Of a DNA stretch of 42,342 bases, positions 9,313-42,342 are shown one piece after another; within the stretch, counting starts at the first letter, position 1; every line of letters starts with the position of its first letter. Source of the stretch: Thermoanaerobaculia bacterium (GTDB taxonomy: Bacteria > Acidobacteriota > Thermoanaerobaculia > Multivoradales > JAHEKO01); assembly GCA_041575955.1 (NCBI GenBank), contig JBFGLX010000002.1, positions 1-42,342 on the forward strand, given 5' to 3'. The translations under genes were made by a program, and so were the position numbers. The notes beneath the pieces were generated by a model. It worked only from the letters and a program-made list of their open reading frames with translations. It made no database searches and was not told where the DNA came from.

Positions 9313-10362
9313 CTACCGGACTCTGCGCGAGAGCTCATGACGGAACTTCGACCACTGCCGGCGGCGAAGGGCGCGCCAGGCGGCTCGCCACCGGAGCCGC
9401 CGCCGGTAGCGGGGCGAGGAGAACGCGGCGGCGGTGTGGCGGAGCAGCGCGAGGCCGTCGGCGCCGGCGGCGGTTGGCTCGCCGGCCTCGAGCGCCCGGC
9501 AGAGCGCCGCCGCCGCGCCCAGCTCGCGCCGGGAGACCGAGCTTCGTACCCACGCGGCCCCTTCGTGCGGCAGCTCTCCCAGCGGGGCGTCGTCGATCGC
9601 CTCGCCCAGGTCGATCAGATCGCCGACCAGACGGGTCACCGGGTAGGCGGTCGGGCTGAGGCCATGCTGGTCGAGGGCGTGCGTCAGGGCATGGGCGGCT
9701 AGCAGCGCAGGCGCCGGCAGGTCGAGACCGTCGATGCCCGGGGCGGGGCGCAGCACACCCGCGCTGAGCAGATCCGCCACCGTGGCGGACCCCCCGCCGG
9801 CGACCGCGAGCCCCGGGATCTGCCGGTGAAGCTCGAGCTCGCCCAGCGACCGATCGGCCAGGGGCGGCAGGTGATGACGCTCTCCCGGCCCCGAGCGCCC
9901 GAAGCCGGACGCCTCGAGCGCCGCCTGAAGCTCGGCGGCGCGGTCGGCCTCGGCGAGCAGATCGACGTCGACCAGGGGCCGGCTGCCCCAGGCGGAGACG
10001 CCCGATTCGAGCAGCGCCATGCCCTTGAGCGCGACCAGACGGATTCCGAGCTCCACCGCCCGCGCGGCAGCCCGACGGGTCACCTCGCGCAGCAGGAGCG
10101 TTCGAGCCGCCAGCCCGGTGCGCGAGCGCCAGAGCGCGTCGACGATCTCGATCGGCAGCTCGCGCTCGGCGTCGGCACGCGGCAGCCGGCTCGCGATCCG
10201 CTCTCGCAGTGCCAGGACGCTCGCCCAGTGAAGCGCGAGCTCGGGCTGCCGGAGCTCGAACGGTCTCCCCGAAAGCGGGCCGAACGCCCGGGCGAGCGCC
10301 CAGTCGAGCTCGGCCGGGAGCTCGAATCCCGGCGGCCGGAAACGGAAGCTGTCGGGATGCAT
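9313..10362 (-). CDS. Nucleotidyltransferase family protein (PF14907/NTP_transf_5-like)
   Basis: Motifs are LVALKGMALLESGVSAWGSRPLVDVDLLA and HHLPPLADRSLGELELHRQIP. I preferred the ATG at 10362, which has GAGG 6 nt upstream. The TTG at 10431 would overlap the upstream gene by 41 nt. Confidence 0.7.
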   Translation of the reverse strand: MHPDSFRFRPPGFELPAELDWALARAFGPLSGRPFELRQPELALHWASVLALRERIASRLPRADAERELPIEIVDALWRSRTGLAARTLLLREVTRRAAARAVELGIRLVALKGMALLESGVSAWGSRPLVDVDLLAEADRAAELQAALEASGFGRSGPGERHHLPPLADRSLGELELHRQIPGLAVAGGGSATVADLLSAGVLRPAPGIDGLDLPAPALLAAHALTHALDQHGLSPTAYPVTRLVGDLIDLGEAIDDAPLGELPHEGAAWVRSSVSRRELGAAAALCRALEAGEPTAAGADGLALLRHTAAAFSSPRYRRRLRWRAAWRALRRRQWSKFRHELSRRVR

Positions 10363-10390
10363 GAGACGCCTCGGCGCGGCCCTGAACCCG

Positions 10391-11535
<1,145 letters not shown>

Positions 11536-11539
<4 letters not shown>

Positions 11540-14735: not shown

Positions 14736-14755
14736 CAGCGCGCGGCCGAGTCGGT

Positions 14756-16060: not shown

Positions 16061-16075
16061 GACGTCTGGCTCGGG

Positions 16076-27926: not shown

Positions 27927-27961
27927 GGGATAATCGGGCTTCGGACCGTGCGCAGGCTGCA

Positions 27962-29353
27962 ATGATACCTCGCTTTCGCCAGAAACCAACCTGGGCGACC
28001 CTGGCCCTCGCGCTGCTCCTGATCTGGGCGCCGCTGCCGTTCGCCAGCGTCACCCCGGCCGGGCTGCTGGCGCTGCGCGTCGGCAGCTTCGCGGTGCTGG
28101 CGTTGGCGCTCTGGAGCGAAGGCGCCGACCTCCGGGGCCGCGGGATCGCGGCGCCGGTCGGCGCCCTGCTGACGATCGCCGCGATCGGCGTGCTCCAGGC
28201 GCTGCCGCTACCAGCCGAGGTGGTCGGGGTGCTGTCGCCGGAGCGGCTCGAGCTCGCCGCCGACGCGACGGCCGGGAGCGGCGCGCCGGCTTCGCTGTCG
28301 CTCTCGCTGGCGCCATCGCAGTCGCTGTCGACCGGGCTGACCTTCGTGGCTGTCGCCGCTGCGTTCGTCGCCGGCGCGCTCCTGGGCGGCGACCGCCAGG
28401 GTCGACGCTGGCTGCTCGGCTCGATCCTGGCGGCGGCTCTCTTTCAGCTGCTCTACGGTTTCCGGCATGTAGCGGCCGGATCGAGGTCGGTTTGGGGGGT
28501 CGAGGTGGCCCGCGAGGCATCGCGCCTGCGCGGCACGTTCGTCAATCCCGCACACGTCGCGCCCTACCTGGAGATGGCGCTGGCACTGGGCTTTGCGCTG
28601 GCGTGGTGGGCGCTCCGGCGGGCGCAGCGGAGCGAGCCGAGATGGGAATGGCGCCTGGCGCTGGCGATCGGGCCGATGCTGGTGTGGCTGGCCCTCTTCG
28701 CGGGCGTGGCGCTCACGCGGTCGCGGGCCGGCCTGCTCGCGGCCGCCGCGGCAACCCTGGTGCAGGGCTTCGTCTTGGCCGCGTACTACCGGCGCTGGCG
28801 CCTGTTGCCGGTCGGCTTGGTGGCGCTGGCCGGCGGCCTCGGTCTGGTGGCCTGGATCGGGCTCGAGAGGGGCCTGGGGCGGCTGCTCGGAACGTCTCTC
28901 CACAGCGTCACCACCAGTGCGAGGCTGGAGGTCTGGAGCGGCACCGCGGAGCTCTGGCGACGCTTTCCGGTCACGGGCATCGGTCTCGGCGGCTTCGAGA
29001 GCGCCTTCCCGATGGTCGAGCGCGAGAGCCTGGCCACCGTCAGCTGGCAGCATGCCCACAACGACTGGCTGGAGCTGCTGGCCACCGGCGGGGCGTTGGC
29101 GGTGATCGTCGCCCTGATCGGACTGGGCTTCCTGATCCGGCGACTCCAAGCCGCTCTGCTCTCGAGCCGCAGTCACGAGGCCGCGGCCGCGGCGGTCGGA
29201 GGCCTCGGAGCGCTAGCCGCGCTCGGCTTTCACGAGCTGCTCGACTTCGGCCTCACGCTGCCAGCCAACTCCTTTACCCTGGCGGTCCTGCTGGGCGTCG
29301 CCGTCGCGGGCGACTCCGGCCTGGCCCCGGTCCGCCCCGACGTCCGGCGCTAG
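27962..29353 (+). CDS. Wzy_C-domain membrane protein (O-antigen ligase / O-oligosaccharyltransferase / polymerase family)
   Basis: The ATG is at 27962. The protein has about 10-12 TM helices and the characteristic loop region ALTRSRAGLLAAAAATL ... GIGLGGFESAF ... HAHNDWLELLATGG. Confidence 0.8.
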   Translation: MIPRFRQKPTWATLALALLLIWAPLPFASVTPAGLLALRVGSFAVLALALWSEGADLRGRGIAAPVGALLTIAAIGVLQALPLPAEVVGVLSPERLELAADATAGSGAPASLSLSLAPSQSLSTGLTFVAVAAAFVAGALLGGDRQGRRWLLGSILAAALFQLLYGFRHVAAGSRSVWGVEVAREASRLRGTFVNPAHVAPYLEMALALGFALAWWALRRAQRSEPRWEWRLALAIGPMLVWLALFAGVALTRSRAGLLAAAAATLVQGFVLAAYYRRWRLLPVGLVALAGGLGLVAWIGLERGLGRLLGTSLHSVTTSARLEVWSGTAELWRRFPVTGIGLGGFESAFPMVERESLATVSWQHAHNDWLELLATGGALAVIVALIGLGFLIRRLQAALLSSRSHEAAAAAVGGLGALAALGFHELLDFGLTLPANSFTLAVLLGVAVAGDSGLAPVRPDVRR

Positions 29354-30991
29354 ACCCATCCGGGCCCCGGCCAGCGCCACCGCGACCGGCCGGACGGTGC
29401 CGCCGGTCTTGACGCGGAGCGTCAGGCGGTGGAGCTCGGGAGAGACCGGCAGCTCGAGATCGAAGGTCGCGGAGGACCGTGGCGACCGCTCGATCGCCAC
29501 CAGACGGCCGTCCCATTCGAGCTCGACCACCACGCCGTAGCGGGGGGCGTCGGTGATCTCGACCGAGAGCCCCGAGGCCGGGGCCGACGGCAGCAGGGTC
29601 AGGGAGAACTCCCGATCGCCGTGCTCCCACGCCGACGCCGGCCAGCTCGACCGGCCCAGCGCATCGAGCTGGGCGTCGGCGTGCCGCGTCGCGTCGGCGT
29701 CGCCCCGCGCGCGAGCGACCTCGCGCGCCGCGATCCAATAGCGCGGCCGGCGATGCCACGCTCTCGACAGCCGCGCCAGGGCGTCGCGGGCAGCACCGTC
29801 GCGGCCGGTGCGGGCGAGGTGCTCGGCCTTGAGCAGGTGGTACCCGGCCCAGGCCTCGCCCATTGCGAAGCGCCGCTCCAGGAGCTCGGCGCGGGGCAGG
29901 TCGCCGGCGATCAGGAACGTCAGCGCGCGCCGATCCGGTGGCGGGTCGGCGGCCAGTCGGGCAAGCCGGCTCAACACCGGCGCCTCGAAGGGACATTCGC
30001 GCAGCAGGCAGAGCTCGAGCGCCCATTCGAGCCAGGTGGCAAAGACATCTGCCGCCGCCTCGCCGACCGGCCCCGGCGGCAGGAGCTCCAGGCTGCGCTG
30101 CAGACGCGGCGCGAAGTCGGCGGCTCGCGGCGTCAGCGCGATCTCCCACAGCAGCCGGTCGCGGGCGCGCTGCCGCTCCCCGCCCTCGAGCTGCGACCGG
30201 ATCTCGTCGAGCGAGCGGTCGAGGTCGGCGCCGAGCGTCTCGTACCACTTTTGTCGGGCCGTGATGTAGAACTCCCAGTCTCTGGCTTCGGTGAAGATCT
30301 CCTGGAGGATTTTCCAGGCCCACGGACGTTCGGGCACCAGCGCCAGCGCCTGGCTGCGAGACGGCGCGACCCGCAGCCAGTCGCGGATGAGCAGCCGGTA
30401 GGTGTCGCGATCGTGAAACGCGCGGCTCATCAGGGCGGTCGCCGCCTCCCGGCGCTCGCCGGTGAGCGACGACCAGTTGCCCAGGTAGGCGGCGGTCAGG
30501 AAGCGGACCGGCCCGGTCTCGACCGGCGCGAGCCGGTGGGCCGCCAGCAGCGGCTCCTCCCAGAGCTCCGGCTCGGCCATCAGCCGCGCGTCGCGCTCGC
30601 GGTAGAGCTGCAGGTAGGTCGCCCCGCCCAGGACCATCGGCGCTTGCCACGACGCCGGGCGCTGCGGCCAGGCGGCCCGCGCGATGGCCGCCGACTCGGA
30701 CAGCCGCTGCGTGCCGCGCTCGACCTCCAGACGTGCCTGCTCGAGGTCGAGCTCCGCCATCCAGGCGCGATCGAGCTCGAGGCTGAGCAGGGCGCGCGCC
30801 ACCCGCAGCTCGGCATCGACCGGGTCGTAACGACGCCGGACCTCGGCGCGCAGCTCGGGGAAGCGCTGGTCCAGGGCGTGACGGTCGATGCGCGCGAGCG
30901 CCCGCTCGCGGCCCGCGACATGGTGCCGGAAGTCGAGTACGGCCAGGGTGATCGCGGACGCGGCCAGCGCGATGAGGACCGGGCGCTTCAA
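29213..30991 (-). CDS. Membrane-anchored protein of unknown function, translationally coupled to the lasso B1 gene
   Basis: 592-aa ORF. The TTG at 30991 overlaps the B1 stop (TTGA). It has an N-terminal TM (RPVLIALAASAITLAVL), a long helical Arg/Ala/Leu/Trp-rich region and a C-terminal beta-rich segment (FSLTLLPSAPASGLSVEITDAPRYGVVVELEWDGRLVAI). I recognised no family motif. Confidence 0.6.
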   Translation of the reverse strand: MKRPVLIALAASAITLAVLDFRHHVAGRERALARIDRHALDQRFPELRAEVRRRYDPVDAELRVARALLSLELDRAWMAELDLEQARLEVERGTQRLSESAAIARAAWPQRPASWQAPMVLGGATYLQLYRERDARLMAEPELWEEPLLAAHRLAPVETGPVRFLTAAYLGNWSSLTGERREAATALMSRAFHDRDTYRLLIRDWLRVAPSRSQALALVPERPWAWKILQEIFTEARDWEFYITARQKWYETLGADLDRSLDEIRSQLEGGERQRARDRLLWEIALTPRAADFAPRLQRSLELLPPGPVGEAAADVFATWLEWALELCLLRECPFEAPVLSRLARLAADPPPDRRALTFLIAGDLPRAELLERRFAMGEAWAGYHLLKAEHLARTGRDGAARDALARLSRAWHRRPRYWIAAREVARARGDADATRHADAQLDALGRSSWPASAWEHGDREFSLTLLPSAPASGLSVEITDAPRYGVVVELEWDGRLVAIERSPRSSATFDLELPVSPELHRLTLRVKTGGTVRPVAVALAGARMGLAPDVGADRGQAGVARDGDAQQDRQGKGVGWQREAEVEQLVKAERG

Positions 30992-31278
30992 GGCCGGCTC
31001 GGGGCGGTCAGGTGGCGGTCGAGGTCCCTGAGCAGCTCCTCGAGATCCCGCCTGGCGGTGTCGCGATCGACCTCGAACGTCTCGATCAGGCGTTGCTCGA
31101 GAAGCGCTCGACGGGTCGCTCCGCCAGCGATCTGATCGAGCACGAACATGCCGGTGCGGTTGAGGCTCAAGACTCTCATGTCGGCCGTGTCGACCACCAC
31201 TCCGCTGCCGTCGGCGAGCGTCTTGTGCCGGTACCGAGCCGAGCCGAGCAGCGCGGAGAGCGCCTCGATCGGTCTCAT
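30988..31278 (-). CDS. PqqD-family RiPP recognition element protein (lasso peptide B1)
   Basis: 96 codons starting at the ATG at 31278, which overlaps the B2 stop (ATGA). The sequence is MRPIEALSALLGSARYRHKTLADGSGVVVDTADMRVLSLNRTGMFVLDQIAGGATRRALLEQRLIETFEVDRDTARRDLEELLRDL. This gives three beta-strands followed by a winged-helix-like pattern, typical of PqqD. Confidence 0.8.
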   Translation of the reverse strand: MRPIEALSALLGSARYRHKTLADGSGVVVDTADMRVLSLNRTGMFVLDQIAGGATRRALLEQRLIETFEVDRDTARRDLEELLRDLDRHLTAPSRP

Positions 31279-31718
31279 CGGGCGCGCTCGAGCGGCAAGG
31301 CCACGACCTCCTCGAAGGCGACGTCGTCCGGCTCGGCCGGCGTCAGCGCCCGATCCGCCACGCTCAACCAGGCGTGGCCGTCGAGCAGGTCTCCGGTCGC
31401 CCACGGGCGGCGAAAGCCGATCCGCACGGCGACCCCGGGCGTGTCCGCCACCAGGGCGCCGGCGACGAGCGAGCGCAGCAGGCAGGTGTCGCGTCGTCCG
31501 GCCAGCAGCCGGCCGAGCCGCGCCGTGCGGGCCGCGGCCCAGACCGCGTCCGCGGGGGCGACCCGCTCGGGCAGGCCTCTCGCCGCCAGCAGCCGGTCGC
31601 GAGTCTCGGTCCAGCCGGCGCCACCGGCCAGGCGCTGGGCCGTCGTATGCAGGCGCCAGGCGCTTGCCAGCAGGTGGGCCCGGTGGAGCAGCCGGCGAAC
31701 GCCACGGTCGTGAGTCAT
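31275..31718 (-). CDS. Lasso peptide biosynthesis B2 protein (transglutaminase-like leader peptidase)
   Basis: 147 aa starting at the ATG at 31718. The catalytic Cys motif is RRDTCLLRSLVAGALV, followed by GVAVRIGF and the His motif LDGHAWLSV. This matches the McjB C-terminal domain (Transglut_core3) pattern. Confidence 0.85.
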   Translation of the reverse strand: MTHDRGVRRLLHRAHLLASAWRLHTTAQRLAGGAGWTETRDRLLAARGLPERVAPADAVWAAARTARLGRLLAGRRDTCLLRSLVAGALVADTPGVAVRIGFRRPWATGDLLDGHAWLSVADRALTPAEPDDVAFEEVVALPLERAR

Positions 31719-31728
31719 CGGACGGATC

Positions 31729-32709
31729 TTACGGCAGCGAGTCGGCGACGGCTGCGAGACATTCCTCGGTCGACTCGAGGAGCGACCGGCCGAGGCGGAG
31801 CTCGATCGCCGGCAGCTCCTCGGCGAAGCGGGTCATGATATCGAACAGCCGGCGACGGCGATCGGCGAAGCGGTCGTCGGTCACGTAGAGCGCGGAGGTG
31901 CCGCGCAACAGAGCGGCGAGCGCCTCGGCCTGGGCGAGCGGCCGTGCCACCGGGCCTTCGCCATCGGACAGGCGCTCGAGCAGGATCAGGCAGTCGGGCT
32001 CGGTCGAAAGCCGGAAGGCCCCTGGAGAGCGTTCACGGTCGATTCGGATGCGTCCATCGGCCGCCTCCTGGCTCGCGAGGCCGCGGGCGTGAAGGGCTGG
32101 CAAAAGCGCTGCCGAGCCCGGACGCAGCCAGAGGCTGCGGCGCGCCGCTCGCACCAGTGGCCGGCGGTCGGCCCGTCCCAGGATCAAGCTGTCGTCGGAG
32201 ATCACCCGGCCGCCGCAGGCCGCCACCGCCGCCGCCACCGTCGACTTGCCCGAGCCGGTGTCGCCGATGAGCAGCAGCCGGCGGCCGCGCAGCTCGACCG
32301 CGGCGGCGTGCAGGAAGCACTCGCCGCCGGCGGCAAGCGCGTCGCCCAGGGCGGCCTCGACCAGCGGCTCGAGGCAGGCCGGCCGCTCGAGCGCGCCGGC
32401 GACGAGCTCGACAGTCGATTCCTCGGTGCCGGGGGAGAGCAGCACCCGGCCGCAGGGGTTGCGCAGCACGCCGGATCCCGCCTCGGGCCGCCACTCGACC
32501 GGTTGAACCGCGTCACCGGCGGCCGGCGGGGGTCCGGCGGCCGCGCGCCACCGAATGAGAAAGGATCCGCCACCGGAGGTCCCGGCCGCGAGCTCGGCCA
32601 TCCATCTGCCGACCAGGAGGTCGGGCACCGCCGACGGCGCGCTCTCGAGCGCCAGGACGCCGGCCAGCGGCGGGAAGCGCAGATACACGATCGAGTCGCC
32701 GGCGTCCAC
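31729..32709 (-). CDS. HPr kinase-like serine kinase (HprK-related, RiPP-associated)
   Basis: 326 aa starting at the GTG at 32709. The P-loop is LLLIGDTGSGKSTVAAAVAACGGRVISDDS. The size and position, next to the B2 and B1 genes, match lasso-associated kinases. Confidence 0.75.
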   Translation of the reverse strand: MDAGDSIVYLRFPPLAGVLALESAPSAVPDLLVGRWMAELAAGTSGGGSFLIRWRAAAGPPPAAGDAVQPVEWRPEAGSGVLRNPCGRVLLSPGTEESTVELVAGALERPACLEPLVEAALGDALAAGGECFLHAAAVELRGRRLLLIGDTGSGKSTVAAAVAACGGRVISDDSLILGRADRRPLVRAARRSLWLRPGSAALLPALHARGLASQEAADGRIRIDRERSPGAFRLSTEPDCLILLERLSDGEGPVARPLAQAEALAALLRGTSALYVTDDRFADRRRRLFDIMTRFAEELPAIELRLGRSLLESTEECLAAVADSLP

Positions 32710-32825: not shown

Positions 32826-34625
32826 ATGAGTGCTATCGCCGCCATCTTCCGCCGCGACCGCGGTCCGGTCTCGGAGAGAGCGCTCGCCGCCCTGGCGGAT
32901 CGTCTCGCCCATCGAGGGCCGGACGGGCGCGACTTGGCGATCGAAGGCGCGGCCGGGATCGCCCACCTGCACGCCTGGGTGACGCCCGAGGAGATCGGCG
33001 AGCGGCAGCCGCTGCGCTCGGGCGGCCGGCTTCTGGCCTTCGACGGCCGGATCGACAACCGCGCCGAGTTGATCACCGCCCTGGAGCTCGAGCGCTCCGA
33101 TCGCTCGCCCTCCGACGCCGAGCTGGCCCTGGCGGCGCACGAGGCGTGGGGAGAGGGGTTCTGCCGCCGGCTCGTCGGTCCCTACGCCCTGGCGCTCCTC
33201 GAGCCCGCCGCCCGGCGCGGGTTCCTGGCCCGCGATCCTCTCGGCGATCGCACCCTCTTTTACGCCGAGCTGGGCGCGGAGATCGTGATCTCGTCGGAGG
33301 AGGCGAGCCTGCTCGGGCATCCGGGCGTCTCCGTGGAGCTCGACGAGTCGCGGTTGGCGCACTACTTCGCGGCCGCCGTGCCGGGCGACGGGTCGACCTT
33401 CTTCCGCGGCGTGACCGAGCTCTTGCCCGGCACCCTGCTGAGAATCGGCGAGGGCCCGGTCACCGCGGAACGGCTCTGGTCGCCGCCGGCGGACGGCCGG
33501 GAAGCGATTCGGGACGGAACCGCACTGGCCGAGGAATACCGCGAGCTTCTGACGCTCGCGGTCGAGAGCCGGCTGCGCTCGCCGGCGCCGGCCGCGGTGC
33601 TGATGAGCGGCGGCCTCGATTCGACTTCGGTCGCCGCGCTGGCGGCCGAGTCGGTCGACCGCCGGGCCGAAGCCCAAAGGCCGCGGTCGATCTCCTGGGT
33701 TTTCGACTCGACCCCCGGCTGCGACGAACGGGAGTTCATCCGGCCGGTGGTCGAGCGGTGGCGCCTGGATGCGCGCGAGTTTCGCGGCGACGAGCTCGGG
33801 CCGCTGCCCGACGGTCGCGAGCTCTGCCTCAACCCCAGCAGCCCGGAGGAGAACCCCTACCGGCGTCTCAAGTCCCGCGCCTACTCCGAAGCGGTGAGCG
33901 CGGGCAGCAGCGTCCTGCTCAGTGGCGGCTCGGCGGACGCCCTCTATACCGGATACGAACGCTGGTTCGCGGATCTGATCGCCGCCGGCAGACCGGTCGC
34001 GGCCGCCGGCGAGCTGCTCGCCGACCTGTGGCGGTTCGGGGCGCGCTCCGGTTTGCGGAGCGCCGGCTTCGGCCGCTGGTGGCGGGCGCTCCGACCACGA
34101 CGCCCGCCACCCGAGTGGCTGACACCTTGGGCGCGGGGGGTGCTCGAGCGCCAGGCGTCGCGGATCGAGCCGGCGGACGCGCGGCTGCTCGCCGCCGCCG
34201 GCCCGCGCCCCGCCCGCGGCATCTCGCTCGAAATCTTCTACGCCGGCCGCTGCGGCGTCGACCTCCGCCATCCGTATCGCGACCTCCGGCTGGTCGAGTT
34301 CATGCTCTCGCTGCCGGCCTGGGAGCTCTATCGAAACGGGAGGTTCAAGGAGATCGCCCGGCGGGCGCTCGTGGGGCTTCTGCCGGAGGCGGTGCGAACG
34401 CGCACCCGGAGGACGTCGCTCACGCCGCTGTTCGATCGGGCGCTGCGCGGACCGAATCGAGCCGCCTGGGAGGGATTGCTCCGGTCGAGCGGCGCGCTCT
34501 GGCCGCGCTTCGTGAGCAGCGCGTGGGTCGAGGCGGCGTTGAATCGATCCGCGGGTCCGGCCGGCGACGTGGCTCTCTGGAACTGCATGAGCTTCGAGCT
34601 CTGGCGCCGCCGCTTCGGCCGCTGA
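32826..34625 (+). CDS. Asparagine synthetase B-like lasso peptide cyclase (C protein)
   Basis: 599 aa starting at the ATG at 32826. The N-terminus MSAIAAIF lacks the catalytic Cys2 of glutamine-hydrolysing AsnB enzymes. The PP-loop is AVLMSGGLDSTSVAAL. The gene is divergent from kinase-B2-B1 and upstream of the precursor. Confidence 0.85.
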   Translation: MSAIAAIFRRDRGPVSERALAALADRLAHRGPDGRDLAIEGAAGIAHLHAWVTPEEIGERQPLRSGGRLLAFDGRIDNRAELITALELERSDRSPSDAELALAAHEAWGEGFCRRLVGPYALALLEPAARRGFLARDPLGDRTLFYAELGAEIVISSEEASLLGHPGVSVELDESRLAHYFAAAVPGDGSTFFRGVTELLPGTLLRIGEGPVTAERLWSPPADGREAIRDGTALAEEYRELLTLAVESRLRSPAPAAVLMSGGLDSTSVAALAAESVDRRAEAQRPRSISWVFDSTPGCDEREFIRPVVERWRLDAREFRGDELGPLPDGRELCLNPSSPEENPYRRLKSRAYSEAVSAGSSVLLSGGSADALYTGYERWFADLIAAGRPVAAAGELLADLWRFGARSGLRSAGFGRWWRALRPRRPPPEWLTPWARGVLERQASRIEPADARLLAAAGPRPARGISLEIFYAGRCGVDLRHPYRDLRLVEFMLSLPAWELYRNGRFKEIARRALVGLLPEAVRTRTRRTSLTPLFDRALRGPNRAAWEGLLRSSGALWPRFVSSAWVEAALNRSAGPAGDVALWNCMSFELWRRRFGR

Positions 34626-34832
34626 GGTCGGAAAGCGCGGCGCGGAACCGGGGGTGCTCGTCTTTTCGACTCGCCGCAATTCTGGCTCTCGAGCCGCTTC
34701 GCGCGCCACGGTTGTGGAGCAGTTCACTGTTTGTCGAGCGCGAGTTCCTAAAAATGGTGAGCAGGGTGCGTTTGTCTTCCGTCAGCAGAGACGTCATGTA
34801 CAATTCCGTTCAGCTTGAAGAGAGAGCTACGT
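34626..34832 (+). promoter_or_regulatory. AT-enriched spacer upstream of the precursor gene; probable promoter / 5' UTR
   Basis: My hand count over 34741-34832 gives about 49% G+C, against visibly much higher flanks. Candidate -10 hexamers are TAAAAT (34749-34754) and TACAAT (34799-34804). Neither has a well-spaced -35 element. A purine-rich GAAGAGAGAG precedes the ATG. Confidence 0.3.
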
Positions 34833-35018
34833 ATGAGACCGATCGACGCCGGCAAGAGCGCGGACGGCCAAGAGCGTCGCGGGCGCCCGCCGCGCCTCCC
34901 CTACGAGAAGCCGGAGATCGTCGAGCGCGGTCGCCTGGTCGAAGTGGCCCTCGGTGGCAGCCCCGGAGCGGGCGACAGCGGCTCCGGCGCGTTCGTCGAA
35001 GACCTCCCGACCGGCTAA
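34833..35018 (+). CDS. Putative lasso peptide precursor (A peptide), 61 aa
   Basis: The sequence is MRPIDAGKSADGQERRGRPPRLPYEKPEIVERGRLVEVALGGSPGAGDSGSGAFVEDLPTG. The leader segment YEKPEIVERGRLVEVAL fits the YxxPxLx3Gx5Tx spacing. The predicted core has Gly1 and Asp8. The gene lies in an AT-enriched spacer after the cyclase. A TTG at 34815 is an alternative start. Confidence 0.7.
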   Translation: MRPIDAGKSADGQERRGRPPRLPYEKPEIVERGRLVEVALGGSPGAGDSGSGAFVEDLPTG

Positions 35019-35056
35019 CCCCACCGGGAGCGACGACCTACCACTAGCAGATGAGT

Positions 35057-35079
35057 GGCCGGGGGCAGTGTGCCCGGCC
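35057..35079 (+). promoter_or_regulatory. Stem-loop between the precursor gene and the adhesin gene
   Basis: GGCCGGG (35057-35063) pairs perfectly with CCCGGCC (35073-35079) around a 9-nt loop. There is no following T-run, so it is not a canonical intrinsic terminator. Confidence 0.35.
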
Positions 35080-35175
35080 CGAGAGAGGAGCAGATTGGTG
35101 TCGAGCGTGTTCCCGGAGTGCAGCAGCTCACGCAGGAGGGCCGGGGCCGGAGAGGTGCCGCGATCGCGACCTGCG

Positions 35176-38100
35176 ATGACGCGTCGGTTCGCTGCTGGGC
35201 GCCTCGCCGCGAGCGCGGCAGCCCTATTCGCGGCCCTGTCGCTGCTGCCCGGGGGCGCCTCCGCCCTGCCGCCGCAGCCCGAGGCCTACTGCTTCGCGGT
35301 TGCGGACTCCGGCGACAACCTGGTCTTTATCAATAAGGATGGTGACGGCTTCGTCGACATGGGACCGACGGGCACCGGGGCGATGGAGGCGATTGCTTTC
35401 AACCCGGACGACGGCAACCTCTACGCCGTCAACGGCGACGACTTCGGCTTCCTGGACTACGACGACTCCTTCGACGGCGACGGCAACGACTCGGAGTTCA
35501 TCCAGATCTCCGCCGACGTCGGGAGCTGCACCCTGCCGGGCGGCGCCCCGCTCGCCATCAACGACATCGATGGCCTGCAGTTCGACGTCACCCGCACCGA
35601 CGCATCGACCGGCACGTTCGTCCTCTGGGCTACCGCCCGCGACGGCGACGGCTCCGCTCCCGACGACGTCCTGTTCCAGATCGACCCGGCCACCGGCCTC
35701 GTGGACACCACGCCGACGCCCGGCTTCACCGGCGGCGCCACCTGCGTGCGCATCAGCGGCCCCGGGATCAACGTCGACGTCGACGACGTCGCCGCCAAGC
35801 CGACCGACGGCATCATCTACGTGGTCAACAACATCGGTGGCGGCACCGACCAGCTGGTCGAGGTCGATCCGGTGACCGGGCTCGGTACCGTCGTCGGCTT
35901 CTTCGACAACACCAACCCGCCGCCGGCGACCGTCTCGGACATGGAGGGCATGTCGTTCGGCGCCGACGGTACCCTGCACGGCACCACCGGCGCCTCGGGG
36001 ACCAGCCCGAACGACTTCTGGACCATCGGCACGCCCGACGGCGAGACCACCCTGATCGCGCCCTTCCCGTCCCTGGGCGACTACGAGGCGGTGGCCTGCC
36101 TGACCGACAACCTGATCACCGGGACCGTGTTCTTCGACATCGACGAGGACGGCGTGTACGAGCCGGCCGACGGCGATTCGGGCTTCACCGGCGCCACCGT
36201 CCGCGTCTACATCGACAACAACGACGACGGCCTCGTCGACGCCGGCGACTCGCTGCTCTGCGACAATCCGGGCGGCGGCTTCAATCTGGCCTGTCCGGTC
36301 ACCGACCCGAACGGCGACTGGGTGTTTCCGGTCGGCCAGGGCAACTTCGTGATGGAAGTCGACGTGGCGACCCTGCCGGCGGGCGCGACCCTCACCACCG
36401 ACAACGCCGAAGAGGCCGACTTCGGAGTGCTCGACTTCGGTCTCGAGGACCCGGACAACGACTACGGTTTCATCCTGCCGGAGGGGTCGGGAGACCTCGA
36501 CATCACCAAGACCTCCGACGCCGGCGGCCCGGTGGTCCAGGGACAGACCCTGACCTACACCCTCACGGTCCAGAACAACAGCGGCGCGAACCACACCGGC
36601 ATCAGGGTCACCGACGTCCTGCCCGCGGGCGTGACCTACGTGCCCCAGAGCACCGTCGTCACCGGCCCGCTCGAGCTCTACGCGCTCGATGAGTTCGGCG
36701 CCGCCCTCTACAGCAACCGCGACGGGCCCCATCCCTGGGCGATCGACTGGCTGGAGACCAACGACGACGGCTCGCCGACCACCGGCAGCATCGACGTCGC
36801 CGCCGGCGAGCTGCGCTTCACCGGCTCGGGCGGGGCGCCGCTGCGCCAGATCGAGCGCCAGGTGGATCTCACCGGCGCCTCGGCGGCGGTGCTGCTGTTC
36901 GATTGGCGCTGCCAGGGCGACATGGAAGCGGCCCAGGACTTCGTGTTCGTCGAGGTCTCGGGCAACGGCGGGGCGAGCTACACGACCCTCGACACCCGGG
37001 AGGGTGAGGTCCACATGTGTCTCGAGCCCGGCGACGCGGACTCCGGCTCGGTCGCCTACGACATCTCGGCCTTCGCGGCCGTCAACACGCGGATCCGGCT
37101 CGGGTTCACGATCAGCGCCACCGACGAGTTCTTCTTCGTCGACAACCTGGAAGTGCGCTTCGCCGAGACCTTCCGCGACCAGTTCGGCACGGTCTCCTAC
37201 GCCAACAACGACGGCTCGCTCTCGTGGGCCACGAGCTGGCTGGAGATCGGCGAGGCCGACGGCCCCGGCTCGGGCGACATCCAGGTCACCGCGGACGAGG
37301 ACTTCGGCGCGCTGCAGGTCCTGCGTATCCGCGACAACGACAACGGCGGCGAGGGGGTCCAGCGGGAGGCCGACCTGTCGCCCTATCAGACGGCGACCCT
37401 TTCGTTCGCCTATCGCCGCAGCGACCTGGACGACCTCAACGACTTCGTGACCGTCGAGGTCTCCGGCGACGGCGGCGCCAACTGGGTCGAGCTCGACCGC
37501 TTCGTGGGTCCCGCCGCGGACGATCCGGCGTACACCACGATCAGCTACGACATCTCGGACTTCGCCTCGCCCACTACCCGGGTCCGCTTCCTGAGCTCGC
37601 CGAGCCTGGGCGGCAACGACGAGGTCTACTTCGACGACGTGACGATCAGCGCCCGTGCCCCGATCGCCGGCACCAAGGACAACGATCCGGGCGGCGCCAA
37701 TCCCCCCGACCTGGTGGACGGGGTGCCGCCCGGCCTGGTGGAGCCGGCCGACGGCTTCCTGCTCCCCGACGGCAACAGTCTGACCGTGACCTTCCAGGTG
37801 ACGGTGGACAACCCGCTGACGCCCTTTGCCGCAAGCCTGCTCAACCTGGCGGTGGTCAACAGCACCGAAAGCAGCGTGCCGGAGGTCGCCCGCCACGTCG
37901 ATCCGGTGGTGAGCGGTGCGCTCGGCGACCGGGTCTGGCTCGACGTCGACGGCGATGGCGTGCAGGACGTCGGCGAGCCCGGGCTGCCGAACGTCGAGGT
38001 CACCCTGTTCGACGCCGGCGCCGACGGCCTGCCGGGGGGCGGCGACGACACCGCTCTGGCCACGGCCCTGACCGGCATGAACGGCGAATACCTGTTCGAG

Positions 38101-41100
38101 CATCTGGCTCCCGGCCCCTACTTCGTCGACGTCACCGACGCCACGGTGCCGGCGGGCCTCGTCCTGGCGCCGGGCAGCACCGATCCGAGCGCGGTCTTCA
38201 CCGTCTCCCAGAGCGAGATTTTCCTGACCGCCGACTTCGGTTACGCCAACGCCAGCGCCGCGAGCGCGATCATCGGCGACTACCTCTGGAACGACCTCGA
38301 CCGCGACGGCATCCAGGATCCGGGCGAGATCGGCATCGGCGGGGTCACGCTCGAGCTGGTCGATCTCTCGACCGGCCTGACCGTGGGCGCCCCGGTCACC
38401 ACCACGGCCGACGGCAGGTACCTGTTCACCGGGGTCCCGCCCGGCGAGTACGAGGTGCGGGTGACCGACACCGGCTCGGTGCTCTCCGGCTCCTCGCCGA
38501 CGGTCGGTCCGCAGAGCGAGGGCGGCTTCGTCAGCGCGCCGGTGACCGTCATCGCCGGCCAGGTGGTCGACGATCTCGACTTCGGCTTCGCGTCCGACGC
38601 CTGTCTGCCGCGGATCGACTTCGACGTCGACGCGCTCGGTAACCCGATCGTTGCGGGTCAGTTCCTGGACGACGAGTGGGCGGCCTGGGGAGTCACCCTC
38701 TCTGTTGTGGCCAACCCCGACGGCGACCCGTCAACCCCGCCTGACCCGGGCCCGCTCATGGCCTTCGACAGCTTCAACCCGACCGGCGCCGACGACGATC
38801 TCGGCTCGCCAAACGAGACCTGCACGCCCGCCGGCCCGGGTCAGGGCGCCGACGGCGAAGTGGGCATGCCGGGCGAGAACTGCACGTTCCAAAGCAACCT
38901 GCTGATCATCAGCGAGGATGGCGACCAGAGCGACCCCGACGACTCCGGCTTCGGCGGCACGATCACCTTCGACTTCGCCGCCGACGTCGAGATCGAGGCG
39001 GTCGAGTTTCTCGACGCCGAGAACACTTCCGACAGCGTCGAGCTGTTCGACCAGTTCTCGACCTCGATCTTCTTCAGCAACCTGACGGCCCCCGGCGATA
39101 ACGCCTACGAGCTGCTACCGGTGGACACCGCCGGCGCGCGCCAGATGGTGGTCACCTTCCCGTCCAGCGGCGCCATCGCCGCGGTCGACTTCTGCCTGGG
39201 CAGCCTGCGCGACAAGGTCTGGCTGGACGCCGACGGCGACGGCTTCTTCGACATTCTCGGTCCGGACGGCCTGCCGGGCACCGGCGACGAGGAGACGCCG
39301 ATCGCCGGCGTGACCGTCGATCTCTTGAACGCCTCCGGCGAGGTGATCGCCACCACCATCACCGACGCCGGCGGCAACATCCGGTTCGACGGCCTCGACG
39401 ACGGCGACTACACGATCGTGATCACCGACACCGACGGCGTGCTGAACCCCTACGGCGGCACCACCACGCCCGCCCAGAACGAGCAGCTCGCGGTGACGAT
39501 CACCGGCGGCGTCGACGTGGTCGGGGTGAACTTCGGCTACAACTCCCCGGGCACGATCGGCGACACGGTGTTCAACGATCCGGACGGCGACGGCATCCAG
39601 GATCCGGGCGAGGCCGGGATCGCCGGTGTGAAGGTCGAGCTCTGGCGGGACGCCGACGGCAACGGCATCTTCGACAACACGGTCGACATCCTGGTCGGCT
39701 CGCAGATGACCGCCGCGGACGGCAGCTACCTCTACTCCGGCCTGACCCGCGGCACCTACTTCGCCAGCATCGACGACTCCCAGCCCGTGCTCGCCGGCTA
39801 CACGCCGACCACGAACGACGAGGAGACCGGCCCCAACGCTCCGGGGACCCAGATCGAGACGCCGCTGGTCGCACTGGGCGACTCGTTCCTGGACGCCGAC
39901 TTCGGCTACAGGAACGCCACCCTGGCCGACATCTCGGGCACGGTCTTCGAGGACCTCGACCGCGACGGCGTCGAGGAGGCGGGCGAAGGCGGTTTCGGCG
40001 GCGTCACGGTCGAGCTGCGCGACTGCTCGGGCAACGTGCTGGCCACGGCCACGACCGACGCCATGGGCGACTACTCCTTCCCCGACCTGCCCGCGGGCTG
40101 CTACCGGGTGGCGGTGACCGACGATTTCGGGGTGCTGGTCGGCTACGCGCTCACCAGCGGTCTCGACACCATCGAGGTGAACCTCGCGGCGAGCGACGTC
40201 GGCGACGTCGACTTCGGCTACGTTCGCGATCCTGGTGGCGCCTCGATCGGCGACGCCGTCTGGCTCGACGAGAACGCCGACGGCATCCAGAGCGCCGCCG
40301 AGGCGGGGCTCTCGGGCGTCACGCTGGATCTCTGGCTCGACGACGGCGACGGCATCCTCGACACCAGCGGCGCCACCGACACGCTGATCGCGACCACCAT
40401 CACCGACGCCAACGGCGAATACCTGTTCCCGGGTCTCGCCGCCGGGAAGTACTTCGTGGATCTCGACACGACCACGCTGCCGGCGAACCTGACCGAGACG
40501 GCCTATCCGGGCGGCTTCGACCCCGCGGCCCTGACCGCGATCAGCGAGGGCGAGAACTACGACCAGGCCGACTTCGGCTACCTGCCCGACGCCGGCACCG
40601 CGGTGCTCGGCGACCGGGTCTGGTACGACACCGACGGCGACGGCCTCCAGGACCCGGGCGAGATCGGCATCGGGGGCGTCGACATCCAGCTCTCGGGCCC
40701 GTCGTGCACGCCGGGGCTGTGCACGGTGACCACCGGACCCGACGGCACCTGGCTGGCGACCGGGCTGGCGCCGGGCGAGTACATCGTCCACGTCGACACC
40801 TCGACGCTGCCGGCCGGGTACAACACGACGCCCACCAACAACGGCGGCGACGACACCTACACGATCACGGTGGCGGCGGGCGACCTCTTCGCCCACCTCG
40901 ACTTCGGCTTCGACGGCGGCTCGACCGGCTCGATCGGCAACTTCGTCTGGTTCGACGACGACGGCGACGGCGTCGTCACCGCGGGCGAGATCGGCGTCGA
41001 GGGGGTGACCATCAACCTGGTGCGCGACACCAACGGCAACGGCGTGATCGACCCCGGCGAGCCGATCCTCGACACCGTCCGCACCGACGCGGCGGGCGGC

Positions 41101-42342
41101 TACACCTTCTCGGGCCTGCCGCTGTCGGACGCCGGCGACGGCGATGCGAGCGACGCCGACTACCTGATCGACGTCACCGACATCGACGAGCTGCTGATCA
41201 CCACCAACAAGACCAGCGGCGCGGCCGACACGGACAACAACAGCCAGGACGATCCCTACGACGTGGTGCTGACCGCGGGCTCGCCGACCAGCGTCACCGC
41301 CGACTTCGGCTACGCGCCGTCGGCGGGCATGGGCTCGATCGGCAGCCAGGTCTGGCACGACCTCGACCTCGACGGGCTGTTCGAGCCGCTGGGCGCCGAC
41401 GGCCTGCCGAACACGGCCGACGACGAGTCGGGCTTCGAGGGCGTGACGGTCCAGCTGTGGCTCGACGACGGCGACGGCTCCTTCGAGCCGTTCACGGGCG
41501 ACGACAACCTGCTGCGCTCGATCACCACCGACGCCAACGGCGAGTACGAGTTCGACGGCCTGCCGTCGAGCACCTACTTCGTCACCGTCAGCGACGTCAA
41601 CGGCGTCCTGGCGGGCTTCGTCCAGACGCCGATCGGCGGGCCGTTCTCCTGTCCGGGCGCCGACGACACCAGCAAGGTGGATCCCTGCATCGTGACCCTT
41701 ACCGGCGGCGCCGCGTCCGACGTCACCGCCGACTTCGGCTATGCCGCCGATCCGGTCGGCTTCGTGCTTTCGATCTCGGGCACCGTGTTCGAGGACGAGG
41801 ACCAGGACGCCCTGCACGACGAGCTCGGCGAGGGCACCGTGCCGGGGGCGATCCTGCTGCTCTACAACGATCTCGACGGCGACGGCGTGCTCGACCCGGG
41901 CGAGCCCCTGATCGGCACCACCATCTCCGACGCCAGCGGCGACTACCTGTTCGACAATCTGCCGCCGGGCGACTACCTGGTCGCGGTCGATCCCGACGGG
42001 ACGCCGGTCGAAGATTGGATCCAGACCACCCAGTCGGGCAGCGGCGGGCTGCAGCCGGTGACGCTGGTCGACGCCGATGTGGCCGACCGGGACTTCGGCT
42101 TCTGGAGCGGTGGCTTCGTCACCACGCCGGTGACGCTCGTGGGCTTCGAGGCGACGGGTGGCGGCCACGTCACCTTCCGCTGGACGACGGCGACCGAGGT
42201 CGGCAACGTCGGCTTCAATATTTGGGCGGTCGAGCGCGACGGCATGGTGCGTCTCAACGACGAGCTGATCCCGTCGGCGGGCGGCGATTCGCTCGAGCCG
42301 ACGAGCTACGCCTTCGAGGCTTCGGGAGTCGCGGCCGAGACC
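35176..42342 (+). CDS. Giant secreted repeat protein / adhesin with SdrD-B (Cna-B-like) repeats, 3' end outside the window
   Basis: I translated frame 1 by hand from 35041 to 42342 and found no stop after the TAA at 35016-35018. The ORF is absent from the supplied track because it has no stop in the window. The ATG at 35176 gives the signal peptide MTRRFAAGRLAASAAALFAALSLLPGGASA/LP. A DUF11-like segment is present (DLDITKTSDAGGPVVQGQTLTYTLTVQNNSGANHTGIRVTDVLPAGVTYV). There are 11 repeats of the type GDRVWLDVDGDGVQDVGEPGLPNVEVTLFD...GEYLF..L.PG.Y.V.V...DFGY. Confidence 0.9.
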   Translation, partial: MTRRFAAGRLAASAAALFAALSLLPGGASALPPQPEAYCFAVADSGDNLVFINKDGDGFVDMGPTGTGAMEAIAFNPDDGNLYAVNGDDFGFLDYDDSFDGDGNDSEFIQISADVGSCTLPGGAPLAINDIDGLQFDVTRTDASTGTFVLWATARDGDGSAPDDVLFQIDPATGLVDTTPTPGFTGGATCVRISGPGINVDVDDVAAKPTDGIIYVVNNIGGGTDQLVEVDPVTGLGTVVGFFDNTNPPPATVSDMEGMSFGADGTLHGTTGASGTSPNDFWTIGTPDGETTLIAPFPSLGDYEAVACLTDNLITGTVFFDIDEDGVYEPADGDSGFTGATVRVYIDNNDDGLVDAGDSLLCDNPGGGFNLACPVTDPNGDWVFPVGQGNFVMEVDVATLPAGATLTTDNAEEADFGVLDFGLEDPDNDYGFILPEGSGDLDITKTSDAGGPVVQGQTLTYTLTVQNNSGANHTGIRVTDVLPAGVTYVPQSTVVTGPLELYALDEFGAALYSNRDGPHPWAIDWLETNDDGSPTTGSIDVAAGELRFTGSGGAPLRQIERQVDLTGASAAVLLFDWRCQGDMEAAQDFVFVEVSGNGGASYTTLDTREGEVHMCLEPGDADSGSVAYDISAFAAVNTRIRLGFTISATDEFFFVDNLEVRFAETFRDQFGTVSYANNDGSLSWATSWLEIGEADGPGSGDIQVTADEDFGALQVLRIRDNDNGGEGVQREADLSPYQTATLSFAYRRSDLDDLNDFVTVEVSGDGGANWVELDRFVGPAADDPAYTTISYDISDFASPTTRVRFLSSPSLGGNDEVYFDDVTISARAPIAGTKDNDPGGANPPDLVDGVPPGLVEPADGFLLPDGNSLTVTFQVTVDNPLTPFAASLLNLAVVNSTESSVPEVARHVDPVVSGALGDRVWLDVDGDGVQDVGEPGLPNVEVTLFDAGADGLPGGGDDTALATALTGMNGEYLFEHLAPGPYFVDVTDATVPAGLVLAPGSTDPSAVFTVSQSEIFLTADFGYANASAASAIIGDYLWNDLDRDGIQDPGEIGIGGVTLELVDLSTGLTVGAPVTTTADGRYLFTGVPPGEYEVRVTDTGSVLSGSSPTVGPQSEGGFVSAPVTVIAGQVVDDLDFGFASDACLPRIDFDVDALGNPIVAGQFLDDEWAAWGVTLSVVANPDGDPSTPPDPGPLMAFDSFNPTGADDDLGSPNETCTPAGPGQGADGEVGMPGENCTFQSNLLIISEDGDQSDPDDSGFGGTITFDFAADVEIEAVEFLDAENTSDSVELFDQFSTSIFFSNLTAPGDNAYELLPVDTAGARQMVVTFPSSGAIAAVDFCLGSLRDKVWLDADGDGFFDILGPDGLPGTGDEETPIAGVTVDLLNASGEVIATTITDAGGNIRFDGLDDGDYTIVITDTDGVLNPYGGTTTPAQNEQLAVTITGGVDVVGVNFGYNSPGTIGDTVFNDPDGDGIQDPGEAGIAGVKVELWRDADGNGIFDNTVDILVGSQMTAADGSYLYSGLTRGTYFASIDDSQPVLAGYTPTTNDEETGPNAPGTQIETPLVALGDSFLDADFGYRNATLADISGTVFEDLDRDGVEEAGEGGFGGVTVELRDCSGNVLATATTDAMGDYSFPDLPAGCYRVAVTDDFGVLVGYALTSGLDTIEVNLAASDVGDVDFGYVRDPGGASIGDAVWLDENADGIQSAAEAGLSGVTLDLWLDDGDGILDTSGATDTLIATTITDANGEYLFPGLAAGKYFVDLDTTTLPANLTETAYPGGFDPAALTAISEGENYDQADFGYLPDAGTAVLGDRVWYDTDGDGLQDPGEIGIGGVDIQLSGPSCTPGLCTVTTGPDGTWLATGLAPGEYIVHVDTSTLPAGYNTTPTNNGGDDTYTITVAAGDLFAHLDFGFDGGSTGSIGNFVWFDDDGDGVVTAGEIGVEGVTINLVRDTNGNGVIDPGEPILDTVRTDAAGGYTFSGLPLSDAGDGDASDADYLIDVTDIDELLITTNKTSGAADTDNNSQDDPYDVVLTAGSPTSVTADFGYAPSAGMGSIGSQVWHDLDLDGLFEPLGADGLPNTADDESGFEGVTVQLWLDDGDGSFEPFTGDDNLLRSITTDANGEYEFDGLPSSTYFVTVSDVNGVLAGFVQTPIGGPFSCPGADDTSKVDPCIVTLTGGAASDVTADFGYAADPVGFVLSISGTVFEDEDQDALHDELGEGTVPGAILLLYNDLDGDGVLDPGEPLIGTTISDASGDYLFDNLPPGDYLVAVDPDGTPVEDWIQTTQSGSGGLQPVTLVDADVADRDFGFWSGGFVTTPVTLVGFEATGGGHVTFRWTTATEVGNVGFNIWAVERDGMVRLNDELIPSAGGDSLEPTSYAFEASGVAAET
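36124..36470 (+). repeat. First SdrD-B/Cna-B-like domain of the adhesin
   Basis: ITGTVFFDIDEDGVYEPADGDSGFTGATVRVYIDNNDDG ... GDWVFPVGQGNFVMEVDVATLPAG ... ADFGV. Confidence 0.65.
36676..37653 (+). repeat. Tandem duplication of a ~160-aa module inside the adhesin (jelly-roll-like, family not recognised)
   Basis: Module 1 runs LDEFGAALYSNRDGPHPWAIDWLETNDDGSPTTGSIDV ... VFVEVSGNGGASYTTL ... TRIRLGFTISATDEFFFVDNLEV. Module 2 runs RDQFGTVSYANNDGSLSWATSWLEIGEADGPGSGDIQV ... VTVEVSGDGGANWVEL ... TRVRFLSSPSLGGNDEVYFDDVTI. Confidence 0.7.
37915..38590 (+). repeat. Two tandem SdrD-B-like domains
   Basis: The repeat starts are LGDRVWLDVDGDGVQD (about 37918) and IIGDYLWNDLDRDGIQDPGEIGIGGVTLELVD (about 38269). 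Each ends in DFGY/DFGF. Confidence 0.8.
39199..42105 (+). repeat. Eight tandem SdrD-B-like domains (degenerate, protein-level repeats of about 105-145 aa)
   Basis: Repeat starts are at about 39199 (RDKVWLDADGDG), 39553 (GDTVFNDPDGDGIQDPGE), 39925 (SGTVFEDLDRDGVEE), 40243 (GDAVWLDENADGIQ), 40603 (GDRVWYDTDGDGLQDPGE), 40927 (GNFVWFDDDGDG), 41335 (GSQVWHDLDLDG) and 41770 (SGTVFEDEDQD). Each contains GxY.F..L..G.Y and ends in DFGY/F. Confidence 0.8.

Follow-up and report, generated by a model that had tools for sequence, protein, structure and literature searches.

PadeK, ThcoK, SyanK, and PsmK are HprK-homologous kinases that act on the linear precursors of lasso peptides, and in the state of knowledge up to 2019 the site of the lasso-peptide kinases was a C-terminal serine (PMC8498205). 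A nucleotidyltransferase (N) can in turn add sugars to the lasso-peptide phosphate (PMC8498205), and an N-type NTP_transf_5 enzyme phosphoglycosylates pseudomycoidin. The bsf cluster of Bradymonas sediminis FA350 encodes the precursor BsfA, which has a 21-aa core with Gly1 and Asp8, a C-terminal Asp, and Ile at leader position -2 (PMC10368454). BsfK phosphorylates BsfA on Ser3, which lies within the future ring, and this activity is stimulated by BsfB1. BsfB2 cuts BsfA C-terminal to Ile(-2)-Arg(-1) of the leader and leaves the I(-2)A variant uncleaved, and the mature BsfA lasso product has never been detected (PMC10368454).

In the window, which is the whole stretch of 42,342 nucleotides analyzed here, a small ORF at 34833..35018 (+ strand) is flanked by genes for a PqqD/B1 protein, a B2 protein, an Asn-synthase-type cyclase, and an HprK-fold kinase. 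We read this ORF, with a probability of about 0.78, as encoding the precursor (A) in a lasso-peptide pathway of the split-B, kinase-associated type.

The precursor gene and the enzymes encoded beside it

The precursor gene encodes 61 aa, MRPIDAGKSADGQERRGRPPRLPYEKPEIVERGRLVEVALGGSPGAGDSGSGAFVEDLPTG, and ends with the stop codon at 35016-35018; its assignment draws on the translation, family alignments, pN/pS, the sole motif match, and a profile search. The 40-aa leader (34833-34952) carries the segment Y24-x2-P27-x-I29-x3-G33-x5-A39-L40, with Tyr-17 at 34902 and Ala-2 at 34947-34949. This is the exact register of YxxPxLx3Gx5Tx, and the translation thus bears out the ORF, the sequence, and the leader spacing described in the initial annotation. 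The -2 residue is Ala39 in place of the canonical lasso Thr(-2). The 21-aa core (34953-35015), GGSPGAGDSGSGAFVEDLPTG, has the small residue 1 and the acidic residue at positions 7-9 of a lasso core, as Gly1 is Gly41 and the first acidic residue, Asp8, is Asp48 (34974-34976). The hydroxyl residues of the core are Ser3 (34959-34961), Ser9, Ser11, and Thr20, and the C terminus reads Pro-Thr-Gly, so that the C-terminal Ser that is the phosphoacceptor in paeninodin-type systems is absent. The candidates for a tail plug are modest, with Phe14 in the window peptide and Leu in its close homologues, and there is no obvious strong plug; Phe14 itself is not conserved and gives way to Leu in the nearest homologues.

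The ORF is a real, conserved gene. When all six frames of the window were scanned for the leader spacing combined with an acidic residue at core position 7-9 (Y..P.[LIVM]...G.....[TAIVSC].x6-8[DE]), this site alone matched, against a chance expectation of 0.03 matches per window (mean of 100 Markov-1 random windows). The pattern scan therefore offered no better precursor candidate within the window; the existence of one would, according to the initial annotation, have counted against its assignment. Compared across the window, L001, L008, and L009, which represent the four closest species, pS was 0.5-0.65 and pN 0.07-0.10, and the resulting pN/pS of 0.11-0.21 over 27 conserved codons indicates purifying selection. 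In addition, the three closest orthologues have an ATG that aligned with the one at 34833. A word-indexed protein search returned six homologous peptides of 60-70 aa, and tblastn detected the peptide in every syntenic locus fetched via the neighboring cyclase gene, including L009, where it is uncalled; the small ORF is thus kept in all syntenic loci, the check that had been proposed for it. Across the orthologues, the N terminus is variable, while the recognition motif and the ring are conserved, which is the pattern of a RiPP precursor. On the NCBIfam lasso leader model NF033521, residues 24-40 scored 13.9 bits (E 0.044), below the cutoff of 19, and a Thr(-2) relative from locus L013 scored 18.9 bits.

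A metagenome scan added 17 further loci and one false match (L026), which was excluded as it lies inside a long antisense ORF, and a profile search of genome contigs with the peptide alignment retrieved one locus only, in the Acidobacteriota MAG OFTM233. This is the nearest locus that carries a name, and the window itself probably comes from an Acidobacteriota member. In the precursor region, an Rfam search gave nothing at threshold, the best match being a sub-threshold Actino-pnp (E 0.12). A promoter and terminator scan of 34500-35300 found none, and RNA folding of the 101 nt 3' of the stop codon gave z = 0.28, which is not significant. The window is 71% G+C, a composition at which open frames are cheap.

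All four enzyme types of a split-B, kinase-associated pathway are present with their catalytic residues intact, and B1, B2, and C are co-located with the precursor. The lasso cyclase-like Asn-synthase homologue (C; 599 aa; 32826..34625, + strand) matches Pfam Asn_synthase, GATase_7, and GATase_6, and its best NCBIfam match is the lasso cyclase model NF033535 (290 bits; cutoff 525). Its N terminus, MSA, is without the Cys nucleophile (Cys2) of the glutamine-hydrolyzing AsnB, and its PP-loop, SGGLDS, lies at residue 261. The HprK/PEPCK-fold P-loop kinase (K; 326 aa; 31729..32709, - strand) has sub-threshold matches to Pfam Hpr_kinase_C and NCBIfam HprK_rel_A. Its AF2 model (pLDDT 89.5) retrieved PEPCK (E 1e-10) and HprK/P (E 3e-7) in Foldseek, and the cluster thus contains an HprK-homologous kinase, as paeninodin-type clusters do. 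The leader peptidase B2 (147 aa; 31275..31718, - strand), a transglutaminase-like Cys protease, was recognized by sub-threshold domain matches to Pfam Transglut_core3 (23.7 bits; cutoff 26) and NCBIfam lasso_biosyn_B2 (21.2 bits; cutoff 33). Its Cys (DTCLLRSL) and His (GHAWL), both of catalytic type, align with those of BsfB2 and of the homologous L013 B2, which at 66.6 bits is above the NCBIfam lasso B2 cutoff. The RRE protein B1 (96 aa; 30988..31278, - strand) belongs to the PqqD family (Pfam PqqD 43.8 bits; cutoff 23.4). B2, C, and the precursor all score below the curated NCBIfam lasso cutoffs.

K, B2, B1, and a conserved 592-aa protein (29213..30991, - strand) are encoded in a tightly packed series on the minus strand, divergent from C. 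The gap between K and B2 is 10 nt, the B1 ATG overlaps the B2 stop codon, and the start of the 592-aa gene overlaps the B1 stop codon. The 592-aa protein, which is kept after B1 in L001, L008, and L009, has one N-terminal hydrophobic segment by hydropathy analysis and gave no family match in Pfam or NCBIfam; its function is not assigned, and it is possibly an accessory or export component. No ABC exporter adjoins the window cluster.

With PqqD/B1, B2, the Asn-synthase-type cyclase, and the HprK-fold kinase at its flanks, the ORF is well supported as a probable precursor, and so are the predicted cleavage after Leu40 and the predicted Gly1-Asp8 ring. We infer the chemical steps, the phosphosite, and the threaded topology as follows. 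The PqqD RRE of B1 would bind the leader via Tyr-17, Pro-14, and Ile-12, and the HprK-fold kinase would phosphorylate the still-linear precursor on a ring-proximal serine. By analogy with BsfK and BsfA, Ser3 would have roughly even odds of being the phosphosite, whereas Ser9 is a possible but weaker candidate and some other site, or none, is unlikely. As Ser3 and Ser9 are both near-invariant, also in the kinase-less loci, the phosphosite is not inferable from conservation. The B1-B2 complex would cleave after Leu-1, with Ala-2 accommodated in an S2 pocket in which the usual Tyr is Val, and the Asn-synthase-like cyclase would adenylate Asp8 and join it to the amine of Gly1. The predicted product would be an 8-residue macrolactam around a 13-residue tail.

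The precursor family and its leader -2 position

A profile built from the seven closest peptides and run at E <= 1e-3 against 1.84 billion representative proteins retrieved 167 homologous clusters, all of them short (31-111 aa). At 50% identity, the family falls into at least 150 clusters, and the counts below were made on the best 150 of 167, in which the leader register could be parsed for 146. Gly1 is found in all 146 parsed members of these best 150, and the first acidic residue is at core position 8 in 140 of them. The Leu40/Gly41 cleavage site and the Gly1/Asp8 pair, both proposed in the initial annotation, thus coincide with the most conserved features of the family in the best 150 clusters. 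Likewise, the leader spacing is near-universal among the best 150 of 167, and the core starts with GG(S/T)PGxGD(S/T)G; the exact ring motif GG[ST]PGxGD[ST]G is present in 83 of these 150 matches. Among the 83 exact-motif representatives, Tyr-17 and Pro-14 are each retained in 82, and at core position 3 there are 79 Ser and 4 Thr. A ring that is near-invariant across a family is unusual for lasso peptides. No mature product is known from the window peptide's family. Searching the literature for the core motif as a string (GGSPGTGDSG and similar) gave no relevant paper, and the Acidobacteriaceae precursors listed in the supplement of Duan et al. differ from this family (PMC10368454). The family, large and uncharacterized and with a near-invariant ring, remains new.

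The -2 residue varies more than the ring. Among the 146 parsed members of the best 150 of 167, it is Thr in 127, Ala in 13, Val in 4, Ile in 1, and Leu in 1, so that Thr(-2) accounts for 87% and Ala(-2), the minority to which the window belongs, for ~9% of parsed members. Ala(-2) occurs together with Ile/Val(-12) in 12 of 13 parsed members, and Thr(-2) occurs with Leu(-12) in 107 of 127. Most members have a textbook lasso leader, for example the canonical Thr(-2) relative in L013 (YRKPHLDKLGDLRTLTL/GGSPGTGDSGGG...), and this anchors the cleavage site at Leu40/Gly41.

As cited in Duan et al., Kretsch et al. 2023 described a Tyr of the RRE that engages Thr(-2) and predicted precursors with Ile, Val, or Ala at -2 (PMC10368454). 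With Ile(-2) validated and Ala(-2) predicted elsewhere, Thr(-2) is no longer strictly defining. To locate the corresponding site in the window, we aligned its B1 to TfuB1 (PDB 6jx3, chain 6jx3_B), in which the residue is the Tyr of 'EYWQLN'. The B1 proteins of L013 and L021, both with Thr at leader -2, and BsfB1, with Ile at leader -2, have Tyr at this position, while the B1 proteins of the window, L001, L008, and L009 ('MRVLSLN'), all with Ala at leader -2, have Val (Val37 in the window B1). The Tyr-to-Val replacement is the change that would be expected if the S2 pocket had been remodeled for a small apolar residue, and its covariation with Ala(-2) represents one evolutionary event, not many. 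Because BsfB2 fails on the Ala(-2) form of BsfA, the B1/B2 pair of the window must differ in specificity. The naturally occurring Ala(-2) clade, in which the RRE has changed to match, remains new, and with its compensating Tyr-to-Val replacement it provides a natural test of the S2-pocket model of leader cleavage.

Kinase substrate, C25 linkage, and polysaccharide locus

The missing C-terminal Ser, to which the initial annotation had drawn attention in the window peptide, is a family-wide trait, as only 4 of the 146 parsed members among the best 150 of 167 end in Ser. It could accordingly be asked whether the peptide is a lasso precursor whose neighboring kinase acts elsewhere, on a polysaccharide-pathway component or on the giant surface protein encoded downstream. 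We consider this improbable. The cluster does lie inside a Wzx/Wzy-type polysaccharide locus, with genes for Wzz/GNVR, Poly_export, an EpsL-like protein, Wzy_C, a flippase, glycosyltransferases, and Bac_transf, a C-terminal Ser is dispensable throughout the family, and some loci without a nearby kinase keep both Ser3 and Ser9. However, the precursor is directly followed by a K homologue in at least nine further loci of the family (L013, L015, L020, L021, L022, L023, L025, L031, and L032), which makes the kinase a regular partner of the peptide family even though the C-terminal Ser is absent. Several compact C-A-K-B1-B2 operons, such as those in L013 and L021, have no polysaccharide genes in view, and in the window K is separated by 10 nt from B2, whose stop codon is in turn overlapped by B1. 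Moreover, lasso precursors are the substrates of the only relatives of this type of kinase that have been characterized (PMC10368454, PMC8498205).

The gene 3' of the precursor encodes a giant surface protein that is secreted and contains CLIPPER/DUF11 and SdrD_B repeats (35098..42342 and beyond the window, + strand; frame plot and Pfam). This gene has a GGAGG RBS and begins 79 nt past the stop codon of the precursor, and the spacing of ~80 nt is conserved. We compared the giant proteins by the gene calls in L003-L006: in the same-species locus L003 the protein has 3161-3187 aa and a C-terminal Peptidase_C25 domain, and in the window a C25 tblastn match lies at 42091-42339. Eighteen independent loci of the family had enough flanking sequence to be counted, and 17 of them, all but L030, encode a Peptidase_C25 protein within 10 kb; C25-C-A operons with gaps of 10-20 nt are common. 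C and the peptide gene are kept apart by a separate C25 gene in L001 and L009, and even so the peptide is encoded ~85 nt upstream of the giant gene. Five locus types (L010/12, L011, L016/18, L017, and L027) have C25-C-A with no K, B1, or B2 within 10 kb, so the peptide can exist without adjacent canonical B machinery.

The near-constant company of C25 genes, the frequent C25-C-A order, the five locus types devoid of B1, B2, or K, and the spacing kept in L001 and L009 are also what could be cited for a conserved unit made of the C25 protease, the Asn-synthase homologue, and the peptide, whose product would not be a threaded lasso. Such a product might be branched-cyclic, might have its leader cut by the C25 protein, or might be ligated via Asp8 or its C terminus to the surface protein or to polysaccharide; taken jointly, these options seem very improbable. 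Loci with no B1 close by retain the full RRE-binding motif (Y-17, P-14, and G-8) as well, an argument for the continued use of an RRE, and the window itself has intact B1 and B2. The single locus L032 includes C25, C, A, K, and B1, and L030 has K-C-A without a C25 gene. Furthermore, characterized gingipains prefer Arg or Lys at P1, unlike the precursor, in which the P1 residue is Leu.

Lastly, in a genome of 71% G+C, one might take the ORF for a chance frame, an upstream regulatory ORF, or the 5' UTR of the giant gene. This notion could appeal to the location of the ORF in the 470-nt gap before that gene, to a GC3 of 0.71-0.77 that is lower than in neighboring genes, and to a second frame also open from 34837, but it is effectively refuted by the conservation pattern, with near-saturated synonymous sites at a pN/pS of 0.11-0.21, 167 homologous short proteins across metagenomes, loci elsewhere in which the same peptide sits 3' of C without a giant gene, and an Rfam search of the region that returned no match.

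For the lasso precursor that we favor, the near-constant C25 linkage and the recurrent linkage to exopolysaccharide export are new and unexplained. The polysaccharide linkage seen in the window is repeated in L022 and L033. The polysaccharide locus of the window also contains, 21 kb off, a gene for an NTP_transf_5 nucleotidyltransferase of the 'N' type (PF14907; Pfam 55.6 bits; 9313..10431, - strand), whose part in the lasso system is uncertain. A tblastn search of the other loci found no NTP_transf_5 homologue within the 10-kb flanks, and in L033, which was fetched later, an NTP_transf_5 gene lies directly 3' of a family precursor.

It is conceivable, though in our estimation doubtful, that the precursor family is a dedicated partner of secreted C25 surface proteins and polysaccharide-export loci, making a peptide for the cell surface. 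If so, the (phospho-, possibly phosphoglycosyl-) lasso peptide would serve the cell surface rather than act as a diffusible antibiotic. Toward the C25 protease it could act as inhibitor, chaperone, or substrate, a PorU-like C25 transpeptidase could attach the peptide unit to exopolysaccharide, and the C25 protease could cut the leader in loci without B1 and B2. As lasso peptides are mostly without a known native function, the linkage to C25 proteins and exopolysaccharide points to a testable role at the cell surface.

Comparison with described lasso systems

Like the canonical class II lasso precursors, the window peptide has Y-17, P-14, a hydrophobic residue at -12, G-8, Gly1, and an acidic residue 8. 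However, the canonical precursors and the TfuB1/FusE RREs combine Thr(-2) with Tyr, whereas the window clade combines Ala(-2) with Val. The paeninodin-type, Sphingobium-type, and pseudomycoidin systems likewise encode an HprK-homologous kinase with A, B1, B2, and C, but their kinases require a C-terminal Ser (PMC8498205), and the window peptide ends in Gly.

The bsf cluster resembles the window in being a split-B lasso cluster with an HprK-like kinase, and BsfA resembles the window peptide in its 21-aa core, its Gly1-Asp8 pair, its Ser3, its lack of a C-terminal Ser, and its non-Thr(-2) residue. The leader register is identical, as BsfA 13-35 aligns with residues 21-43 of the window peptide. 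This register and the positions of Gly1, Asp8, Ser3, and Ser9 are invariants of the window peptide's family. K shares 34% identity with BsfK over the catalytic region (BLASTP E 1.5e-7) and keeps all eight BsfK catalytic residues (H134, G149, G152, G154, K155, S156, D172, and D173), so that the H-G-G-G-K-S-D-D kinase set and a Ser/Thr3 in a Gly1-Asp8 core, which together mark the BsfA type, are both present in the window. By BLASTP, BsfA matched the peptide at E 0.047, over the leader only, and BsfB2 matched B2 at E 0.003, while the comparison of BsfB1 with the window B1 was not significant. The cores are unlike and have no significant similarity (GTSGNEVDGS... in BsfA versus GGSPGAGDSG... in the window), the -2 residue is Ala in the window versus Ile in BsfA, and the B1 site is Val in the window versus Tyr in BsfB1. 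In contrast to bsf, the window cluster has no adjacent ABC transporter, its NTP_transf_5 gene is 21 kb off, and its genes are arranged in divergent units; it is also linked to a C25 surface protein and lies within a polysaccharide locus.

The initial annotation had held that a different kinase site would be new. This was pre-empted by the phosphorylation of BsfA on Ser3 by BsfK (PMC10368454), and with that precedent a non-C-terminal kinase site is not new in kind. Alongside BsfA, the family of the window peptide instead provides a second and much larger family in which ring-proximal serine phosphorylation can be studied.

A giant surface protein and Peptidase_C25 beside the precursor

The precursor gene (34833-35018) is followed, after 79 nt, by the start of a gene for a giant secreted protein (35098-42342, forward strand), which contains CLIPPER/DUF11, many SdrD_B repeats, and a C-terminal Peptidase_C25 domain with GHSG...WGC motifs; its counterpart in L003, a locus from the same species, lies at 10266-19829. 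A Peptidase_C25 protein is encoded within 10 kb of a family precursor in 17 of the 18 loci with adequate flanking sequence, and the single operon of Peptidase_C25, cyclase, and precursor genes is a frequent arrangement among the family loci. At L010/L012, L011, L016/L018, L017, and L027, this trio is present and no kinase, B1, or B2 gene was found within 10 kb. The leaders at all of these loci retain Tyr-17 and Pro-14, and Gly-8 is also retained except in L027. Either the B genes of these loci reside elsewhere in the genome, or a different protease cuts off the leader.

Possible upstream element and tail variants of the precursor

The box CATGTACAAT at 34795-34804 (TACAAT at 34799-34804), 28 nt 5' of the precursor ATG, could be a -10 element, and it is conserved in part in the related loci L008, L001, and L009. 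A consensus promoter scan of 34500-35300 found no full sigma-70 site near the precursor. In some precursors of the family the tail contains a pair of Cys residues, as in ...QRCPGCP or ...CDPSGFGCP (P0173, P0176, P0209, and P0229; L015); in others it is very long, and the core reaches up to 48-49 aa (L013 and L025). These tails suggest disulfide-bearing or extended subtypes.

The surrounding polysaccharide locus

The lasso genes are enclosed by a complete Wzx/Wzy-type polysaccharide locus (7666-29353), which comprises a flippase (7666-9162), Bac_transf (12150-12797), three GT4 glycosyltransferases, Wzz/GNVR-CbiA (23448-25736), Poly_export (25733-26581), an EpsL-like outer-membrane protein (26649-27989), and Wzy_C (27902-29353). 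The convergent Wzy_C ORF overlaps by ~140 nt the 3' end of a reverse-strand gene (29213-30991), whose start in turn overlaps the B1 stop codon. The encoded 592-aa protein has a single N-terminal hydrophobic segment and no match in Pfam or NCBIfam, and it is kept downstream of B1 in L001, L008, and L009. At the 5' end of the window, a 984-aa ORF with an open 5' end (1-2955, forward strand), encoding a trypsin-like peptidase domain and a VWA domain, appears unconnected with the precursor.

The same polysaccharide locus holds an NTP_transf_5 nucleotidyltransferase gene (PF14907; 9313-10431, reverse strand), 21 kb away from the lasso genes. In L033, an NTP_transf_5 gene directly follows the precursor, ahead of Wzz, Poly_export, and Wzy_C genes. 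The NTP_transf_5 gene of the window is of the "N" type found in kinase-containing lasso clusters.
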